This document shows, piece by piece, positions 45,901-62,450 of a DNA stretch of 64,000 bases; within the stretch, counting starts at the first letter, position 1; each line of letters opens with the position of its first letter. The position numbers and the translations under genes were made by a program. The notes under the pieces were generated by a model that worked only from the letters and a program-made list of their open reading frames with translations, did no database searches and was not told the origin of the DNA. Origin of the DNA: Chiloscyllium plagiosum (lineage: Eukaryota). The stretch lies in NCBI RefSeq assembly GCF_004010195.1, contig NC_057755.1:6121474-6185473 (forward strand), read 5' to 3'.

Positions 45901-48900
45901 TCCTTTGTACACATCTACAGGAATAGATGTTTCCAATAATATCTTCTGCATAATGTCTATATGATGACCTTTTCAACTGGAATGGCAGTAAATAATTGCC
46001 GGCAATCATTTGAACTAAAGAGTGATAAAATGCCTTCTGCAGAGGTGGAATAAAATTACAGAGGAAAATCAACTCCTTTGATTCTATAACTGACTACCTG
46101 AAATAAGGTCTGTGCAGTTGTGATCGGCACGATACATTATCATTTGTAACATTTCCCATTTATTTGATTATTACTCTCACTGACCAAGCAGATCAATTGC
46201 AGGAAGGGATCATGTCATGCAATCTCGTGGGTCACACATTTTGAAAGTCAAATCTATGTTAATATGTGCAGCTTTGTCCTGCAAATAATCTCTTCTTATT
46301 TACTTATTTGACTGTAAAAACCCAGGACAAATTCATTTTTAATTGTGAAATTTCCAAGTCGATATTTTGCTAACAACAATTTCTGGCCAATAGTGTGTCG
46401 CCGGACGTTGATGCTAACGAAATTTCAAAGATGCATTCCATTCTGTTTTGCAGTTGAGGTAGCTCGTGAGAACGTCATGTTTTGGAAAGAAAACGAAAGT
46501 AAACAGATTATGACACGATTAGACTCACTTTCATTGCAGTTGACACATTCTGCTGTGGCACAATCGCAAAACTCTGACAAATTTTAAAAAAAGATGAAAT
46601 TTCAAAATAATGCTGTTGTTAGTATATTTCTCGTCGTTTCTGCTATGCCCTTCATTGATATTGAAATGCTATATTGTGATAATGTATGTCCTCTCTTAGA
46701 ACAGTTCTAATTTTCTCTGGAATAAATCGACCACAAATATCTTTGGGAAAATGGTACGTGAAGAGTTACACAACGGTAACACATTAAATAACACAAGAGC
46801 TTTTCACGACCATCACCGAAAACCATATTATTGAGGTTCTAAAAAAGTTTGGAAAATGGAACCTAATGATGAAATAATAGACTTATGACCAATCAAGGCA
46901 GCGCAGTGCAGGATGTATATGCCAAGTGGACAAGTTCTTTTCCTGGTGCAGTCAAGTTGCCTGAACAATCCTTATGGAGGAAAGGATTGATAGGTAGACC
47001 GAGTGTCAGTGGGGTGTGGGGGTGTGGGGGGGAAGATGGCGACAACTGTACACAGGAAGTTTTCTGTATCGTCGATATATCACAATTGAATAATGCACAA
47101 GCAGAGTTGGTGACAGAATGGAAGGACCTCGCAGAGTGCAAATGTATCATTTATTAGTCATGGATCATTGTATTTGATGATGGCTGACTTGCATCACTTC
47201 AAACATAAAATTGTAAAAACGCTCAAGGATAACGGATAGAAAGAAACCAATGCAGATGCAGGAAACATCCTCAGTCAAAATGAAATTCATTTTTTTTTTG
47301 TAATCGAATAACTCCTGGAGATTCCTGTAATTTGTGATATTTCGTTTCTCTTTATGAATGACACGTTTATTCGAAGCTCATCTGAAAGGCTGAAAATTGA
47401 ACATTTGCAAGAGTCAACATTTCCAATAGTTATTGTCCTGACCAGAACGAGATGTCTTCAATTTTGTCCTAGCTCTGTGATGTCTATTCGCAATTCTGTC
47501 ACAACTTTGACTATGGTTTACTGCACCTCATTGGGTGTTCAAGTATTAAATCAGCATTTAGCAATTGGAAATTCTACAACACAGATGAATGCACTCTCAG
47601 ATGTATATGTCATCCATTCATTGTATAATTTATGAAACCAGAGATTTCAAAGTGTTCTTGATTATCACTCTGAACTTTGACTGAGTCGCTGCATAAATAA
47701 GTACATTCGTGCAGCAACTTAACTTCCACAACACGAATCCGAAATCTTGAAATATCAATTCGGACTCACTGTGAAATTTTCTTCTGAAGGCATAACGAAA
47801 GAAATTCATGATAAACATCAACGACAGATGTATAAATCTTCCAGATATGTCAAAAAGTAAAATGCCAGACTTCCTCCTGCGTTGCATCTCTGTGCCACAC
47901 TAGTTCTTGCCATTGCTGCCGGCTTTCAGTTCCTTATAAACTCGGCTGGATGCTAAATTGTGTCTTACAGTCAAAGCAATGATCAAAAAAATTAAAGTGC
48001 ATGGGAACAGAGGAGTTAAATGTTTATCAAATCTCTCATAACCCACCCAACCAGCATCAGAATAAAAGTTCAGTTTTGCACAACAAAGCCATGGTACATT
48101 GCTCACTATCTTCACATGTTCAAAAATGGAGTAGATGCGAGTGCTTTTCAAACAGAGCAGAATGCACGTTGTTGAAAGCAGGATAGCAGCAGATTTCCAC
48201 TTGCAAAATCGTGCTCTTAAATTAAGACAAGAAAGAGCTACAAATCAATCAAAAGAGAAGGCGATGGTGAAACAGACAGAGCAATCTATGCCTGCATCAC
48301 ACAATGTATCATGAGGACTACACGCAGGAATGATGTCCATGAAAAAAAAATACCGGAGCTTCATAATAATACATAACCATTTTCAATATTACTTCAAATA
48401 TAACAACCAGTATTTCAGACATTGCCATAGCCATGAGGTAGCGAGTGGTGCGCTTTGAAACACCACAATTTCCGCAGGAGAATATCATAACCACCAGCAA
48501 ATTACCGGTGTGAGAAAGAAAGGAAAATACATTGGTATTTAATCAGCGAACATCTTGTATAACTACACAGTAAGTATGGCATGATGAAGCCCCGATTATG
48601 GCAGTCAGATTGTCGGGTTTGTTTGAATCCTTGAATAGATGAGCCTCCACTGCATTGGTGCCTGACTGTGAGCAGGGAATGTTAACGCTTATAAATTAGT
48701 CGTGGTTAGAAATCTCTAAGCTACAGTTACATTTTCATCTGGATGAGCCTGGTAGAAATTTTGCCCATTTGGTCCTGAACTTCTTCACAGACGCCTCACA
48801 GAATAAAGCTTTCAGTCAGAGATCAGACAGTAATTAACACTGTTCACAGCATTAGACTCCAGTCAAAATTCACTTCCCTTTCCAGCACAACTCAAAATTA

Positions 48901-49019: not shown

Positions 49020-49380
49020 ACAGTCACAGAGTCAAAGAAATGTACAGAATGGAATCAGACCCATCGGTCTAACTCGCCCATGTCAACCAAATATCCCAAT
49101 GCAATCCAGTCCCACCTGCCACCACCCTGCCCATACCCCTCCAAACTCTTCTTATTCATATACCCATCCAACTGCCTCTTAAATGTTGCAATTGTAGCAG
49201 CCGCCAGCACTTCCTCTGGCAGATCATTCCATACACGTATCACCCTCTGCATGAAAACGTTGCCCCGTGGGTCTCTTTGATATCTTTCCCCTCTCACCCT
49301 AAACCTATGGCCTATCGTTCTGCACTCACCGACCACAGGGAAAAGACTTGGCCTATTTATCCTATCCATGCCCCTTGTCA
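49020..49380 (-). mobile_element. CR1 LINE 3' terminal fragment
   Basis: RGMDRINRPSLFP..GHRFRVRGERY..QRVIRVWNDLPEEV. Confidence 0.88.
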
Positions 49381-50344
49381 CTGTTTTTAACCAAATGTCT
49401 GCATACACTATCAGTCATCAATGTCTGGATGAGATCACAAATCAGAGTAGGAGTAGGCCTTTTGAACATTAGAGAGTGAGATATGATCGTAACTAATCGA
49501 GTTATCCTACATTCCGTTCCGCCCCTGTAAGTCTTTCACCCATTTATGTTGCAGAACCTGTCCAACTCTACTTCAATCCCTCTGCTTTCAGTGACTTTGC
49601 GAAAAGAGAGTGCAATAGATCCATGGAAGGTGGAGGAAAATAATTATTCTCAACTCTGTCTTCCATGTATAGAGTCTTATATCTACCCACAAACACTGAG
49701 TTCTTGAAGCTCACACTAAATGCAAACCCCTCGCTTTCAAACCTCCTTTAGTTCAAACTATTACTTCCATTCTTGTTATTCCAGGATTCCAAAAATGGAC
49801 TGGAATACAGCCTAAAGAACCTCCAAAAAAAACCTCTTTGAGGCATTGCAGAGACGATGTTTTAACCGGTAATAAAAGCACTTATGTAAATTGCTTTTCC
49901 ACCATTACCATTCCCAGATGTGGGTCCGCTCCCTTTCTCTTTCAGTCTCGCAATCTTCAATGTGCAGTGAAACTGGCTTCAGCTCTATTCCCAAAATAAG
50001 CGTCAATCCCATTCGCCATTCTGAAATGAACTCAGTTTGGAGAGTTGTTTTGCATTCGGCTACTTGTCTCTCCTTGCCTGTTTAGGGACTGAATCCAATG
50101 TAATTGTAATTGAGCCATTTCAAAATGTGATGCTGTCACGTGCTTCAGAGTTACACAGAAGAGCACCAGTAATGCGAGCTGATTTTCACATTCTTAGATT
50201 CGCAGACTGAGACGTGGTGAATAAGTATAATTTCCACCGTAATAATGGCACAGGAATGTTGGAATATGCTAGTTTTTCAAAATTGGAAGTAAGCAGTTTT
50301 TGAGACATTTGAGGAGATGGGCCAATCCTGTATTTATAAATATG

Positions 50345-52090: not shown

Positions 52091-54095
52091 CACGTAAACA
52101 CACCCCATGCTTTTTGTTTGTGTCGACCAAGCATAAGAATTTCAGAATATTGCAGGGTGGAAACCAGCATGCTTTTGATATGATAGAGATGTCCCTGCAT
52201 ATGGTCTGAAAATTAACATTCATGTAATAGAGGGCCAACAGCAGTTAATTCCTGTGAACCTTCGAACAAGTTTGGAAAGTATTAATGTAACTGCATAACA
52301 ATTAGTCTCATCAACAAATATTTCAGTGTGAAAGGAATCTGAAGACCAGGTTGCACTCGTGATAATTTCTGTATAAACTAAAGGTGATGTTCTATGACAT
52401 GAGTCGTGCCTCACGTAATGAAACAGTGTCGATGTGATCGATGTGAAGCTCTGAAATGAATGAATGTCGCAACCGTGGAACCATCTCTGTTTTCTCATTT
52501 GCGTCTGTGATTCTACCCTTTAGGTTCACGAAGAATGCAGAATATTTTGGCTGCAACACAAAATTATTCAGGGCGTAAATATTCCTGGTGAATTAAAATG
52601 CCAAAAAGTAAGTTCGATGTTGTACAATATATTATTCTCCGATGGAGCACACTTTAGCTTTAACCAACGTGTGGCAAATCGAGTTTAACGTAGCTAAATG
52701 TGTGTTGCTGCAATTTAGTAAGGCAAATTAGCGCAGTGTTCTGGAAAATATTACCCAAAAAATAGAGCTTATGATACCGAATCACACTTCCTTGAAAGTG
52801 GAGTCACAGGTAGACAGTGAAGCGAAGGAGGCATTTGGTACACTAGCACTTTCCGATACTGATAGAACACTTATGTAATTCTAAGTAAGATTTTTACATG
52901 ATTGATGAAAGAAAAATATTGGGCATTTTCCAACAAATTGCTAACTTACACCATGGAAACAGTTGTTGAGAACCTTGGATCAGGCCACAGCTGTTTGCAA
53001 AGCGCACATGCTTTTTGCAACTGAACTTTTTGCCTAATGGCTTTGCATTATTTATTATCACTCTCTTTTTTCTTGATATCCCGCCCAAGGAATTGAAGTG
53101 AGTGGGCTGGTGGTTTTTGTGGGTCAGTGAAAGCCATTAAGCTAGATGAACAATCAATGGTTTATCTTCAATAACTGCAGAAGAAAAGATAAATAAAAAA
53201 ACGATACATGCAGCACATAATATAAAACGTCTGACTATTTTATTATTGAACTACTTAAATCGTTCCAGTTCGAAAACGACACTTACTAAAATTGTACATA
53301 GACAGGTATTCACAATAATCTGGATAGTTGTTATCAACAACGATTCTTACTTTTCACAAGTATGCAAGAATAGATATTTCCAATGGTATTCTTCAGGATG
53401 TCTACTTTATCTGATACCCATTTCAACACTGCAAAACATTAACCGAAAGGCAGTACATCATACACAGAAAGCAGTTAAATCCAAGCAGTGATGAAACATC
53501 AGCTGAGGAGGTAGAGTAAAATTACAGAGACAAGTCAACTGATTTGATCCAATAACCGAATGGCTGAAATAACATCTGTGCAGTTGTGATCAGCACCAAA
53601 CATTATCTGGCACAGTCTAACATTTACAAATGTTCGATTATTACTCTTATTTACCGAGCAGACCAACCAGCGCAAGAATTATGTTGTGCACTTTCCTTCG
53701 ATTGTACATTTGAAAAAGCCATTTCTACGTTAATAAGTATTGCTTTGTGCTGCTATTAATCCCTTCGTAGTTAATTCTGTGATGATAAAATCCAAGTACC
53801 ATTCATTTAAACCTTGTGAAATTTCCATGGTGGTGTTGTGCTTGTCACAATTTCTGGCCAATCGTGAAGCCCAGGATGTTTGCCATGATTAAATCTGAAA
53901 GATTAAGTTGCTTTTGTCTTGTAGGCGAGCTAGCTCATGGCAACTTCTAAAGAAAATGGAAATAATCCGTTTATGACATGTGTTAGATTGCATTTCATTG
54001 AAGTGGCACATTGCACTCAGACACAATTGCACAACTCTGACATTAAGGTCTATTAGATAGGGAATGTAGCAAATGATGTTCAAGACATTTGGGGG

Positions 54096-54512
54096 ATGTG
54101 GGAAGCAGAATTGTTGACGATGTTGAAGAAAGTAAGACCACCTAAGTCTGAGCTGCACTGTACAGTGATATTTGATGAGTCTGAAAATGAGATCTTAGAG
54201 AGGCAGTGGGAGCAGGAAGTCACCGCTCCACAACATTTCAGAAGTGAAGCAATAGTATTAGGGGAGCAGGGAGTGATTCTGCAAATAGAGAGAAATGTAT
54301 TCCAGGAACAGTGGTGTAGTGTACCATGTGCTGCACCACATGTAAAATTACTGGTAAATAAGGGATATCAATCTAAAAAATTAGGACCTATGACCAGGCA
54401 TGTAGAAGCAGTTATGGAATTGCATATGCTCAAGGCAGGGGTTTGGGAATCCGAGAAAGGCAGCTATATTAAAATCCTACCATGCTGCAACCTGACAAAG
54501 AATCGGAAGTAA
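54096..54512 (+). pseudogene. Putative 2H (CNPase-like) phosphoesterase domain of the ERV pol
   Basis: ELHCTVIFD (His at 54156) and APHVKLLV..G (His at 54339; one base from HVT), 61 aa apart, directly upstream of RT. Confidence 0.65.
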
Positions 54513-54569: not shown

Positions 54570-56200
54570 GGTAATGAGCAATTGGATACATTACCAGCCA
54601 TTTGTGGTCACAGCATAATACAGATGTGGGGAGAGTGAAATCAGCTTGCCGTGTGGAAATAAGGTTGAATCCACGAGCTATTCTGCCTTGGAGACCGCAG
54701 TGTCCTGTAAAACCAGAGACAGAGAGGATATTGTAGAAACAGTACAAAGATTGCTGAAAGCACGTGTACTTAAAGAAACGTGTAGTCCCTGCAACACTCC
54801 TTTGTTACCAGTCTTAAAGGCAGGCGGGTCAAAATGGAGACTTACACATGATTTAAGAGCAGTAAATGAGGTAGTGAAGGCCAGCAGTTGTTCCTAATCC
54901 ACACATATTGCTAACTAAAGTACCCCACACAGGCAACTTGATTCTCTGTGGTAGAGTTATGTTCTGCTTTTTTTTAGCAATCCCCTAATTCAGCACACAG
55001 AATCAGGGGTAATCAGGCAGCGGATGAAACGGATAAGATAGTGTCGGGTTGTTCTTCATCTGATATCGCGCCACCGGTGCAGATAGATCCAGAAGCGAAT
55101 ATCGAAGACCTCAATGAAATACAGGGGAGGGCTACACTGGCAGAGCAAACACTATGGGAGCAGAGGGGTGCGAGGCAGAATCAAGAAGGTTTATAGACCA
55201 CAGAGGAAGCTTTATGGGTAGCACCCACCCCGTTGTTGACAATTCTTATTTCAGAGGCGCATGGATTTGATCACTGTGCGCGAGGGGAAGTGCTGAGGAA
55301 GATAAAGCAGCATTGTTTCTAGTCACCCTACCTGCAGGCTTCATGAAACTATTTATTTTGACAATGTGAGGTGTGTGCCCAGTGCACTATTAGGAAGTAG
55401 ATGACGATCCCTTTAGGAACATACCAGTGCCTGAAGATCCACTTAAAAAATTAGTAATTGACTTGATGAAAAAAAGGTGAGAGGGAAAAGGTACATGTTA
55501 GTGGTGATTGATAGTTTTATTCGATGGGTAGAAGCTATCGATTCCAAAGATGCAGGAGCTCGGAAGTACTGAATATTCTGACGAATGAAGTTATAACAAG
55601 GTTTGGTATACCATCGGAAACAGTTCAGACATTGGGTCTGCCTTCATTAAGAAAGTAGTTAAGTTGGTGTTTGTCTTTGAGAATCACGCAGAGGTTTGAG
55701 TGCGTGCATCATCGCCCATAGCAGGGATTTGTGGAAAGGATTAATGAGACATTGAAAGCCAAATTAAACAAGATCTGTACAAGCACCAACCTTAATTGGG
55801 TTGATGATCTGGCGCTGGCATTAATGAGTTAACACATGCAGACTAATTGCATGACCAATCTAACAACACATAAGATGCTTACAGGTACATCTATGTCAGT
55901 GCCTAAGTGGAGAAGCCCAAAGAAGGTCCGAGCTTGGACAGTTAAGCTTAGACCTTTAGCAATATATGCAGCAGCTAACCATGATACATGAGACTATCCA
56001 CATGCAGGAAACACACAGTGAACCGACACTTGTCAACGGGGAAGGACATATTAACCCAGGGGATTAGGGTTCCGTGCAGGTTATCCGAAAATGCTGGAAC
56101 AAGGTGAGGAGAGTGGGACTTTCGTATTGACGAAATCATCACCTACTTCCATCCAAGTGGAAAGACGACACATATGGTGCAACCATAATCATTGTACTAA
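54570..56200 (+). pseudogene. ERV pol remnants (RT N-terminus, RNase H end, integrase)
   Basis: SPCNTPLLPVLK..KWRLTHDLRAVNE; GNQAADE; zinc finger AHGFDHC..CEVC; core [29 protein letters not shown]; multiple frameshifts. Confidence 0.9.
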
Positions 56201-56239
56201 CACTCTCCCACCGGCACAAGCTATCTCTAACACTGAGGT

Positions 56240-57890
56240 AATTGGAGCTGAGGCAGAGGAACGTAGAGATGGGCAGGGCACACAGGGGGCTAGTACCCCT
56301 CAGCAGGCTTCCGACGAAGGTAAAGATGGCGTTCTTGGGGATAAATATTACTCCAAACATGATAACAATGCAAATGTGGAGCATGGATCTTCTGCTGGCA
56401 GCAGGGATAGGGAACACATGTGTACGCCCCTAATACCCCCGATCTGATGCCAGACCTGCATGCTCATACTTGGAGACAATTACCATAGCACACCTAGACT
56501 GGTAATATCAGGGTCACTCAGGCTGGGAGGCAAAAACAAATTTGAAGTGCAGACGTTGCTGATTTAACATGTGAACGCGCCTATGGCAATTACTGGTGTC
56601 AATGGGTAAACTACACGGCCGTAATGATGGTTAGACAGGACTGTTTCTTGTGTACAAAGGCTACTCCCTCATACTATGTTGTCCCTATGCCCTATAACTC
56701 GACCACCTGTACTCAATGGCATTTGCAGCACTCCAGTCGACCTATTATCCCGGATGTTACATCAACTTACATGCACACCCAATGCCTCTTTTGGTGCCTT
56801 CTACTTCAGGCCTCGGCATTCTATCAGCAGGATGACGCGGCCAGGCATTAACTCCAATGTTGGTATGGCTATAGTACACCGTAGTCCACCAGTAAGACTA
56901 ATTACACGTTCCACGTGGGTGCTTTCAGGATACGGGAAGGGTTGAGTTTTGAATGCTTTAAGCGAAGTGGTTCCACACCAGTAGGCTGTTTTAAGAGTCT
57001 TTGTGGGAATACGATTGAACTGAAGGTGGACCCCACATTTGGGGTTGTCTTAAATTCTAAACGCATTGCACTGGCAGATACTTGGTAGCTGTGTTGTAAA
57101 AAAGGAGGGTTGCACCCGACGCTGCCCGCTGAATGGAACGGCAGCTGTGCCCGTGTAATGCTAATACACTAGGTAGTTATATCACCACAGGCACAGCTTG
57201 ATGCTATGTCACACTCAGCCGAACTAAGCCACGGTATGTTCCTGATCAGATGATTTGGATTGATAGCATAGGACAGCCAAGAGGTGTTCCTAATGCGTTT
57301 TAGGCTGGCAATGAGATTGCAGCAGGCTAAGAGGCTCTTCTCCCAGAGATAGGGGTTAGCAAGAATGCTAAATGGATTAATTCCATTTGCTACAACCAAC
57401 TGAGATTTATCCATTATAACGGCGATGCCCTTGTGGCCTGGAAAAACAATTGAATGCTACTAACAAAATGTCACGGCAACACAGATCGGCCGAGGATTGG
57501 ACACTGGCAGAAAGTATGGTTTGTGTGATGTTTGGGGAGCATTGCTGTAAATTTGTACAGAACAAAACAACCCCTGCGGGATCTTTTACTAAAGAAATGG
57601 AAAAACTAAAGCGTCTAAGACAGGGGCTAAAAGACAATGCGGGCTTTGGTCTTCAGGCTTTTGATTGATTGAATAATCTATTAGGGTTATGGGTAGCATG
57701 GTTTGTCAAGATTGGTCTTATCATTGGTGCGGCGTAATTTATTGTCACCTTCATCTTTTGTTGTATTTTACATTTTATTAAGTCTTTTTAAGTTTGCGAT
57801 ATGACACGGCAAACTGTGGTCAGTTCATCTGCCCCCAAAAGTGATTCCTCCACTGACGGAGCCCCACCACTCTACTTTTATGATCTGTGA
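56240..57890 (+). pseudogene. ERV env remnant (gamma-type TM)
   Basis: DCFLC in SU, LPAEWNGSCA, IDSIGQPRGVPN, CX6CC motif CVMFGEHCC, hydrophobic TM segment ~57680-57780; stops and frameshifts. Confidence 0.85.
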
Positions 57891-58180
57891 AGTGCCACGG
57901 TGCAAGGAATGTAACCACTAGGGGACATCGATGATACTTATGAAGTGTGCGCGGGTCCTAGATTGTGAGGAATCTTGGGACTTCTTTTCCTGTTCTGATA
58001 ATTGGAGGACAGGTATTTGGCCCAATGGACCCCCCGAACGGAGGAAGAACCCATTAATTTCCAGACTCCGAAAATTATTTAGTCTGTATAGGGATCTACA
58101 TTGTTTGCATTGGGGGCAAGAGTGGCTTACCTTTTTGCCTTCTTTCTCTAGGTGAGACCATTAGGTCTGAAAGGGGGACA

Positions 58181-58931
58181 TATGGAAAATAAAGAGCATG
58201 AAAGCATGGGAAGTGTCAAAGCATGAAGATCAGTGGAGAATTGTTGCAAGGCTTGTATGGAGGATAATATAAGGATAGTGGAGTGCTCATACACCAATGA
58301 GCAGAGTAAGATTGAGGCTGAAAGATCACTGTGGCGGGTTGAGATAACATATTTAGTAAAGTCAGCTCCCTGATAAATATCATCATGGCAGGATCGGACG
58401 ATAAATATTTGGGACATGGAATTAAAGATCTAATTAGTAGATAGTACAGTCAGCTTGATACAGGACATTATTGTAATAGATGGAATAGCTAAGTATCAAA
58501 TCTTGACAGGTAAGTCTGGAATGGAAAATCGTTGCAGCAGAGGTGAAAACAAATATCTAATCATGACATTAGGAAAATATTGAATAGAGGCTGGAATTAA
58601 AGACCAAAGTTGCAAAAGCTCACACTAAATATGTAAGCCGGACTTTAGAATAACATTAAGCAGAATGTAAGAAAAACTACTGGGGCGCAACTAAAGAGAT
58701 AATAGAATCTAACATTTCTGGTTTATTGTGTATTCAGTGATATAGTTGGACATGCTGATAAGCTAACCCAAAAATGATTTTTACAAAAGACATAAAAAAA
58801 CCATGGACCCTGAGGATTGTGGCCATTAGAGAATATGCTTTCTGAGTGTACGGTTTTTTGTTTGCAAATAAAATACATTCTTCTAAAATAATACTCTGTG
58901 TCTCCTGGTGATTCTCTATATTTTCTCCACG
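58181..58931 (+). repeat. ERV 3' LTR (~750 bp)
   Basis: Follows polypurine tract gaaaggggga; degenerate inverted termini tatggaaaat / attttctccacg; AATAAA near 58867. Confidence 0.7.
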
Positions 58932-59850
58932 GCAGTTGCTGGTTTAAATTAAGGAGGAGGTTTTACCACGTGTTGTAACAGTTTGAGGACTCGTCGCCCG
59001 GCATTTGAACTGGTTTAGCCGGATATGAACACATTTGTGAGTACGAAAAATCCCTGCAGATTTGAATATTTGCAGGTTAATATCCCGGACCTTTAGCTAA
59101 AACGTGGATGAGACAATTTGTTTACTTTCGCTGACTTGTGGTTCATTAAATTAAAAGTGAGACAACTGGCTCTTAAAAGTTGTAAAGAGGTTCTGGGATT
59201 TGAAGATGATTCGTAAATTTGCCAAGAACGTTTCGAAGGAAAGAAAACGGCCATACTTTCAGAAATGGCAAAGAAATTAGATTTGGGTTTGGCCAAGAAC
59301 TGGCAAAGCTGAAATTGTAAGGGAATTACACAAATACTTACGTGTCTCAGAGAAACAGACAAGTGCAGTAAAGTACAAGAAAATAAACTACAATAGTGGA
59401 AAATGGAGTTCAAAAATAAATAAAGAGGGAGAGAGGACATACAGAGGGAGAGAAAGGGAAAGAGAGAGAGAGGAGAGGGAGAGAGGGGAAAAGAAAGAGA
59501 GAAGGTTGTTAGGCAACAAAAAGAGAGAGAATTTGAACTTGAGAATTTGCGAGTTAGTCAGCAAAGTCAAGTTTATAGGATGGAGATTAAAAGAGAACGT
59601 AGCGGTGTACAACAAAATGTTAAAATTCTGCCAAATGTTGATGCGAAAGATGTAGAAGCCTTCTTTATTTCATTTGAAAAATTATCTAGGCTGATGGATT
59701 GGTCCTAGAATTTGTGGGTACTGCTAGATCAGGCTAAACTGGTCAGCAGATATAGTGAGGTATTTGTCGCGCTGTCAAGGGGTTCTGAAGAGCTAAAACC
59801 GTCTATTTCAAGTGCTTACGAATTGGTACCAGAAGAATATCGGAAGAGAG
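58932..59850 (+). mobile_element. Gmr1-like Gypsy element: 5'LTR end, tRNA-Pro-like PBS, gag N-terminal part
   Basis: ...tgttgtaaca then tgaggactcgtcgcccggcatttgaac (compare TGGGGGCTCGTCCGGGATTTGAAC); gag LPNVDAKDVEAFFISFEKL..LWVLLDQAKLVSRYSEVF..SAYELVPEEYR. Confidence 0.85.
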
Positions 59851-60597: not shown

Positions 60598-61763
60598 CGA
60601 GCTTTGAGAGGATTTGTAGCACAGGTTGAGACTGTGGTTGTAGACTTGCTCGCTAAGCTGGAAGGTTCGTTTTCAGACGTTTTGTCACCATATTAGGTTA
60701 CATCATCAGTGAGCCTCCGGATGAAGCATGTGGCGACATGGTGCGCTTTCTATGCACGTGTTTAGGTTTCCTTGTGTTGATGATTCCATTTCCTGTTGTG
60801 ACGTCATTTCATGTATGGCTGTCATTTCTCAGGGATTGGTAAATAGGATCCCAGTCAATGCGTTTGTTGATAGGGTTCCAGTTAGAATACAATACTCATA
60901 GGATTTTTTTGCGTCTCTCCGTTTGACTTGTCCTAGGGTGGATGTGTTGTCCCAGTCGCAGTGGTGTTCTTCCTCATCTGTATGTAAGAATACTAGTGAG
61001 AGTGGGTCATGCCCTTTTGTGGCAAGTTGATGGTCATTTTCCCTAGTGACTTGTTTTGTGCTTGATTGTGCAATGCAGTGTTTGTTAGAGTTCTTGGAAG
61101 GTATTTTGTAATGACATTAGCTTTGCATATTTTCTGTGTAGCGTCTATAAAGTTCATTAGCTGCTGGTTTAGTGTGTTGTTGGATTTATGGGCTGCCATG
61201 ATGCCAAGATGTCTGAGTGGTCTGGCAGTCATTTCTGTGACGTATTTGATGTAGATGAGAGTGGCGAGGTTTCTGGACGTGTTTTGTCTGCTTGTTTATT
61301 TTTATTACTGAGAAATCCGCGGCATGTGTTCATTGGGTACACGTTTTATTTAAAATACTGCATAAGTGATTTTCCTCTGGTCTGCGTAGTTCCTCTGTGT
61401 TGCAGTGTGTGGCGACTCGTTGAAACAATGTTCTAATGCAGCTTCGCTGCTGGGTGTTGGGATGATTGCTTCTGTAGTTCAGTATTTGGTCAGTATCTAT
61501 TGTTTTCCTGTAGACGCTGATGTGAAGTTCCTCATTGCCTGTTACCTCTACTGTAACATCATGGAATAGCAGTTCGTTGTTTTTTCTTTCCTCCTCTTTA
61601 GTGAATTTTAAGCCAGTAAGTGTGTTATTGATGGTGTTGGAGGTTTCCTCGAACTTGTTTCATTTAGCATGGTGACGAAACATCTGAAAACGGACCTTCC
61701 AGCTCAGCGAGAAAACCTCCGTCCAGATACTCAACTGAGCTACAAATCTTCTCAAAACTCTCG
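60598..61763 (-). mobile_element. Penelope-like element with inverted ~100 bp termini
   Basis: Minus strand GIY-YIG-region peptide HQLATKGHDPLSLVFLHTDEEEHHCDWDNT; 60598-60700 is the reverse complement of 61665-61763. Confidence 0.85.
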
Positions 61764-61789: not shown

Positions 61790-62450
61790 ACTGGTCTGAA
61801 AATGGAAACCCACTGTTATCTGACAGATAGAGATGAAGAGAGGAAGTAGTGATGCATGCAAATATGTTACAGATTTGCCACATTTTGATGAGAAAGATAT
61901 CGAAGCCTTCCTTATTTTATTTTTAAAAAAAGCTAAGCAGTTGGCATGGCCAGAGAATTTGTGGATAATGCTAGTCCAGACAAAGCTGGTAGGCAGAACT
62001 GTTGAGGCTTTTGCTGCGCTGGTAATAGTGGGTACGAAAAGAGGTTCTGCATATGTGTAAAAGGCTGCTTAGGTGTCTATGAATTGTAACCATAAACGTA
62101 CACAGAGTGATTCAGAAACATAAATCGGGAACCAGGTCAGACTTATGCTCAGTTTCAAAGTATTAGCACAGTTATTTTGGTAGATGTGTGCCGGACTTAA
62201 AAATAGAAAAAACATGTGAGACATGAAGAGAGATTATTCTGATGGAAGCGTTTAATACCTGACTTCCAGATCTTATAAGAATTCATCTGGATGAACGGAA
62301 AATGCGGGTAGTGAGAAGAGCGGCAGAAATGGCAGATGATTATGAAATGACGCAAAAGGTGTAATTTCTGGCATGAATTTCGGCCTATGAGAGAAATTCG
62401 GAGAAGGCGAGATTCTTCACCGCAAAGCAAAGTGTAGATGACACTGCTGA
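61790..62450 (+). mobile_element. Second Gmr1-like Gypsy gag fragment with SCAN-like capsid C-terminus
   Basis: LPHFDEKDIEAF..WPENLWIMLVQTKLVGR; EIILMEAF..LPDLIRIHLDERK..RRAAEMADDYE. Confidence 0.85.

Follow-up and report, generated by a model that had tools for sequence, protein, structure and literature searches.

A stretch of 64,000 nucleotides from Chiloscyllium plagiosum (the window) carries a segment that we tentatively read as the remnant of a CNPase-fold 2H phosphoesterase domain which lay between protease and reverse transcriptase (RT) and may have opened 2',3'-cyclic phosphate RNA ends in the virion, a reading that structure prediction renders plausible without making it probable. 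The domain is real and was correctly spotted in the preliminary description, yet it is not new. As suspected there, the architecture is already in print for bony-fish retroviruses (PMC9503650 and PMC4977317, both in part): excerpts of the former state that certain retroviruses, for example WDSV, have 2H domains, citing Mazumder 2002, and excerpts of the latter that some ray-finned-fish endogenous retroviruses (ERVs) encode CNPase, citing Basta 2009. The window segment is a Pol-internal domain of a 5'-truncated, RT-deleted, epsilon-like provirus, where the epsilon-like assignment is suggested by architecture together with the match of the predicted fold to walleye viruses.

An open frame within a decayed provirus

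The features recognized in the window are as follows.

54043..54512, plus strand: remnant of a predicted 2H phosphoesterase (CNPase-like) domain of Pol (paralogue homology, stop-free frame, predicted fold)
54156..54164, plus strand: first catalytic motif, H-C-T (sequence; conserved in copies and homologues)
54339..54347, plus strand: second motif, here H-V-K, departing from H-x-T/S (sequence; conserved elsewhere)
54510..54512, plus strand: premature stop in the linker between 2H domain and RT (paralogues open there)
54590..54985, plus strand: RT N-terminal remnant, frameshifted, up to an internal deletion (tblastn with full Pol homologues; paralogue alignment)
54987..56234, plus strand: C-terminal end of RNase H and integrase remnant (tblastn; 17 stops in one frame, frameshifts)
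56360..57890, plus strand: env remnant, limits approximate (collinear with env of L032 and L033)
58169..58178, plus strand: polypurine tract (sequence; immediately 5' of the LTR)
58181..58930, plus strand: 3' LTR with a putative end (L034 repeats, paralogue homology, read ends; AATAAA at 58867-58872)

The 138-codon open segment with two His motifs just before RT, as first described, was confirmed, with RT N-terminal pieces following in shifted frames at 54590-54885 when full-length Pol homologues were used in tblastn. Counted between stops the segment encodes 151 amino acids (frame 54057-54512, without internal stop) and counted from the ATG at 54096 it encodes 138. LHCTVIFD begins at 54153 (His codon 54156) and PHVKLLV at 54336 (His 54339, Lys 54345-54347), with 61 residues separating the two. 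The two-motif pattern was matched by none of 20,000 shuffles of the ORF, which is a rough control only since the pattern was derived post hoc from that same ORF. Pfam and PDB sequence searches with the window ORF alone as query gave no match. Judged from the paralogues, neither end of the ORF is a gene end and both result from decay, since the paralogues have the Met of 54096 in an internal position and L032 and L033 continue reading at 54510-54512, where the window copy stops. Paralogue homology to the window starts at approximately 54043 (54039-54048), upstream of the stop at 54054-54056. A stand-alone accessory gene is ruled out by the same internal Met and open paralogues, and the accessory enzyme originally envisaged is replaced by a domain embedded in Pol.

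The RT and integrase remnants, together with the architecture of paralogue L032, bear out the proposed ERV context. Three of 29 paralogues align through to 54972-54987, and at 54987 the tblastn alignment skips from approximately Pol residue 390 to approximately residue 910. Protease and gag are absent upstream of the 2H domain in the window copy, and the 5' part of L032 (gag, protease) has only two short matching pieces, elsewhere in the window. The missing upstream genes and the jump within Pol indicate a provirus that is both 5'-truncated and internally deleted. At the 3' end, the two terminal repeats of L034 (95.7% identical to each other over 376 nt) both match 58185-58555; read and contig ends accumulate at 58181, paralogue homology stops at 58930 and no second LTR copy was found within the window. 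For the env remnant, TLV_coat was matched weakly by the L032 ORF (E 0.0029, which lies below cut-off). Comparison of the window copy with 29 paralogues gave dN 0.143 and dS 0.160, and the similarity of these values fits the expectation for neutral decay. Two raw RNA runs contributed 12 and 0 reads, with partial fit only.

Other elements were observed in the window. A weak match to rhodopsin-family GPCRs (7tm_1, E 0.0017, below cut-off) lies on the minus strand at 48318-48542. A 196-nt stretch present in two copies that are 72% identical (59579-59774 and 61826-62021) has no Pfam match, and we take it to resemble a piece of LTR-retrotransposon gag. Minus-strand frames at 61330-61659 and 49055-49414, also without Pfam match, presumably resemble the ends of non-LTR retroelements.

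Among the 30 best genomic loci, Lys in the second motif is confined to the window copy. Its origin by a single ACA to AAA substitution, as initially assumed, is not supported, as the assumed codon occurs in 0 of 30 copies and the codon of most copies is two nucleotide changes away from the window Lys codon. Assembly error is an unlikely source of the Lys, since a contig from a public run, possibly the window's own source, is identical to the window over 54260-54491. The position lost is equivalent to T311 of mouse CNPase, in which T311A left no measurable activity (PMC4643303, in part). By analogy, the H-V-K motif is likely inactivating and this copy of the provirus is likely inactive and dead, in agreement with what the preliminary description had supposed. 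The window copy does not hold both motifs of the 2H superfamily intact and is a degraded copy of a member.

Copies in the genome and relatives in other fish

A genome search identified at least 151 matches (from 150 scored of 450 candidates), with split halves and the window itself included in the number, so that the locus is one of at least 150 decayed matches. Of the 30 best loci, 26 have H-x-T as first motif and 24 as second. A protease motif was present no more than 600 nt upstream of the domain in 26 of 29 paralogues, and in frame in 14. In L032, gag with a zinc knuckle and a TAG stop is followed by a single 600-aa frame comprising protease (RVP, E 1.3e-11), 2H domain and integrase remnant. 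L032 has the features of an epsilon-like (class I) fish ERV, with gag-pro-pol-env order, a gag stop that would be read through, a single zinc knuckle and an integrase C-terminus of MLV type; the window copy retains only the 3' part. Further ERV families of this genome, to which L031, L035 and L036 belong, are more divergent (35-41% identity over the domain) and again have protease followed by 2H domain. In L028, an insertion of approximately 630 nt splits the 2H domain at window-equivalent 54115-54129.

One RT-removing junction is common to 21 of 29 paralogues, with 3 of 29 running on into RT. The junction (window 54679 / 55553 equivalents) deletes nearly all of RT, RNase H and the integrase N-terminus, and an 8-nt near-identical microhomology was observed there; L002-L030 are the full set of 29 close paralogues. 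The junction-sharing paralogues look like an amplified non-autonomous subfamily retaining gag, protease and 2H domain. Pairwise dN/dS over 20 of the 21, L024 being left out as a likely duplicate of L021, indicated no purifying selection specific to the 2H domain, with values of 0.67 (CI 0.52-0.87) for 2H, 0.72 for protease, 0.99 for the RT stub, 0.65 for the integrase remnant and 0.53 for the integrase C-terminus, the pairs being non-independent and cross-family dS being saturated and unusable.

A search of 1.84 billion cluster representatives, using a profile that included the protease and RT flanks, gave 447 matches at E <=0.001. Across the best 150 of these 447 together with P0001, H-x-T/S was found as first motif in 80 of the 88 matches that cover it and as second motif in 92 of 96, with 78 matches spanning both, counts to which the motif-bearing profile adds some selection bias. 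Four of the five alignment columns with the highest conservation are H34, T36, H95 and G110, and motif conservation extends across clusters less than 50% identical. Conservation of the motifs, which the preliminary description proposed to check in a family consensus, was found in genomic copies and homologues alike. Within full Pol proteins from teleost, skate and stingray the domain sits between RVP and RVT_1 in a single frame. The anticipated in-frame position between protease and RT is thus shown only in relatives, the window copy having no protease or gag upstream.

Twenty representatives were looked up and ten were named: seven teleosts, a stingray, a skate and one with a bacterial metagenome label. 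The cluster of the skate representative contains two skate species, and the nearest named proteins to the window ORF are from stingray. A restriction to elasmobranch ERVs is not what was found, the domain being widespread in teleost ERVs and matching exogenous walleye retroviruses. The RT of homologues has its best PDB scores against gammaretroviral RTs, and no conserved protease cleavage site flanking the domain was evident in 45 + 45 linkers. Database labels for several relatives are probably wrong: P0001 is a stingray protease-2H-RT fragment named 'E3 ligase Siah1', P0067 is an ERV Pol filed under a bacterial metagenome genome and likely fish host DNA, and the walleye virus entries Q9WHI8 and A4GTG3 in BFVD are called 'Envelope polyprotein' though they match a Pol domain. 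The 843-aa homologue P0032 has two 2H-RT stretches in tandem.

The literature search, with supplements, Basta 2009 and Mazumder 2002 outside its scope, found no functional test of the retroviral domain and no report from cartilaginous fish. By term look-up the retroviral domain was not encountered in PMC4422223 (shark ERVs), PMC8672886 (zebrafish ERVs), PMC10835031, PMC3185748, PMC7619455 or bioRxiv 10.1101/2024.07.05.601823, and PMC2790309 and PMC3185560 contain protease data only.

Predicted fold and family placement

An AlphaFold2 model generated from a 65-sequence alignment (pLDDT 89.7, pTM 0.83) was compared with 48,161 chains using VIA-align. Mouse CNPase (2xmi) ranked first with Z 13.9 and rmsd 2.9 over 148 of 151 residues, followed by an archaeal 2'-5' RNA ligase (7.3), drCPDase, which we take to be from Deinococcus (7.2), Acb1 (6.3) and AKAP18 (6.1). 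Lower scores were obtained with MHV ns2 (6.0), rotavirus VP3 (5.3-5.4) and penguinpox cGAMP PDE (4.8), and plant Appr>p CPDase gave Z 5.5 against the model. The titles of the top 21 rows (Z 4.2-13.9) denote 2H enzymes, save for two unnamed rows, and the remainder have Z <=2.7. In a Foldseek search of the PDB all 41 rows listed were CNPase or RICH (best E 6.3e-5). The window domain almost certainly has a 2H fold according to this model, and the CNPase-like assignment first made from the motifs is upheld; the absence of a fold match or of conserved His motifs, which had been named as grounds for rejecting it, was not observed. Fold alone does not fix the substrate in the 2H superfamily.

Two further features may link the predicted domain to CNPase and fish RICH (PF05881; PDB 2xmi, 1woj, 2i3e), its best structural match, beyond the paired H-x-T motifs that both possess. 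Five residues after the His, 82 of 94 matches have an aromatic residue, Tyr or Phe; at the same spacing Phe235 of mouse CNPase stacks on the substrate, according to excerpts of PMC4643303. A model helix at 106-118 comes after the second-motif strand and is likened to helix alpha7, described as unique to CNPase (PMC4643303, in part), by order of elements and not by residue-level superposition. The window domain differs from CNPase in its size (approximately 150 as against 210 residues), in an identity of 12-19% that lies below Pfam detection, in being embedded in Pol and in lacking the PNK-like N-terminal domain. PF05881 was found in 0 of the 65 aligned members, among 25 of 33 families listed, and weak hints of other 2H families were seen for 2_5_RNA_ligase2 in 3 members, Acb1 in 2, LigT_PEase in 1 and 2H-SAK in 1. 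A PDB profile search was dominated by RT.

When the genome was searched with PF05881 the sole match was the host's own CNPase gene, located on C33 (L037:1501-1935 and L038:1288-1695) with both motifs intact in two exons. Alignment of the domain with the host CNP exon by hhalign was not significant (probability 1.5%, E 0.034), and capture from the host CNP gene is not demonstrable by this comparison.

Three BFVD entries matched the model at E <=0.001, an unnamed 1072-residue entry and the polyproteins of the piscine retroviruses WEHV1 (E 4.1e-8, TMq 0.72) and WDSV (E 1.2e-6, TMq 0.72), from which the window copy differs in being truncated, in the loss of one catalytic residue and in its cartilaginous-fish host. 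By language-model features in the Atlas, the window ORF lies near clusters in which 10% of members carry tRNA_lig_CPD (0.94), and the nearest cluster of homologue P0011 is 63% PF08302 tRNA_lig_CPD (0.96), a lead that comes without alignment or E-value. The nearest named family by these features, fungal Trl1 CPD (PF08302), is the tRNA-healing branch (PMC5434554), and the window domain departs from it in having no ligase or kinase partner. The viral immune-evasion enzymes MHV ns2, rotavirus VP3 CTD, Acb1 and poxvirus cGAMP PDE have the superfamily fold and motifs in common with the domain, but their known substrates are different, and they occur outside retroviral Pol and reach Z of only 4.8-6.3 against 13.9 for CNPase, and the initial comparison with NS2, VP3 and Acb1 thus pointed to the wrong 2H branch.

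Proposed function and its alternatives

CNPase-type chemistry is rather probable for the domain, judging from its predicted structure, and RNA-end healing is a main role that we put forward with reserve. The Pol domain would be made by read-through of the gag stop, the TAG seen in L032, and packaged into the virion at Pol stoichiometry, where CNPase chemistry would convert a 2',3'-cyclic phosphate to a 2'-phosphate and a free 3'-OH. This may have served to heal blocked RNA ends beside RT, the 3' end of the primer tRNA being the most plausible substrate, and the healed ends would be those that metal-independent nucleases leave on primer tRNA or packaged RNA. Clearance of cyclic-phosphate RNA fragments would be another use. 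Its fixed placement in Pol would suit a substrate in the virion or in the reverse-transcription complex. Most retroviruses replicate without such a domain. That a dedicated RNA repair enzyme in Pol restores the 3' end of primer tRNA (or of other packaged RNA) once host nucleases have attacked it is distinctly unlikely; if true, it would represent an enzymatic step of retroviral replication that has no known counterpart in the remaining genera and is conserved from sharks and rays to bony fish.

It is unlikely, though deserving of serious attention, that the domain was instead a virion-carried immune antagonist destroying 2'3'-cGAMP or 2-5A in the manner of poxvirus cGAMP PDE, Acb1 or NS2. Retroviral cDNA triggers cGAS, which counts in favour of such a role, as does an OAS gene cluster in the host (C25, approximately 15.32-15.38 Mb, L039-L042), a tandem array of about three OAS-like genes. 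RNase L was not found among 33 host candidates, which does not prove its absence, and the two intact KEN-domain matches in the host look, by motif, presumably like IRE1 and not RNase L. The enzymes of this kind share the fold, although all score less than half of the CNPase Z, and Pol-level expression would be low for a cytosolic antagonist. Excerpts of PMC9503650 include 2-5A cleavage among the roles proposed for 2H domains of RNA viruses, whereas the LigT-type viral enzymes convert 2-5A to products with a cyclic phosphate and leave cGAMP intact (PMC8406329, in part), a reaction unlike that of CNPase. On the loss of OAS in teleosts PMC6307210 gives no settled answer. The evidence leans towards RNA-end chemistry over immune evasion.

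Clearance of small cyclic-phosphate metabolites is improbable as the role of the domain. It would fit with the report of CNPase as well as macro domains among the additional modules of fish ERVs (PMC4977317, in part), with the place given to 2H domains, along with macro domains, in ADP-ribose conflict networks (excerpts of PMC9503650) and with the use of 2',3'-cNADP+ as a CNPase assay substrate (PMC4643303, in part). However, no macro domain was present in the Pfam matches of the 14 long homologues scanned, and the score of plant Appr>p CPDase is far from that of CNPase.

We consider it very doubtful that the domain acted as a decoy or competitor against host CNP, a Gag-binding blocker of lentivirus assembly, with catalysis secondary. 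CNP inhibits the formation of HIV-1 particles, whose Gag it binds (PMC7471995; PMC5434554), it is the closest solved fold and its gene is present in the host; moreover, the 21 close paralogues that keep the domain without RT have it in frame with protease where checked. Such a role sits poorly with the catalytic residues being the best-conserved positions, with the low identity to CNP and with the lack of extra constraint on the RT-less copies. That the His motifs arose by chance in a spacer without enzyme function is hardly credible, as the failure of the ORF to find Pfam or PDB sequence matches is outweighed by conservation across the divergent clusters and by the fold match, which largely refute it.

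With RNA-end chemistry as the preferred reading, the findings direct a first assay to CNPase-type cyclic-phosphate substrates and not to 2-5A. The evidence here extends the domain to ERVs of cartilaginous fish besides those of teleosts, so that it constitutes a further conserved enzyme-like Pol module in a large branch of fish retroviruses, one that may mean RNA repair in a retrovirus or a new way for retroviruses to counteract nucleotide signalling.
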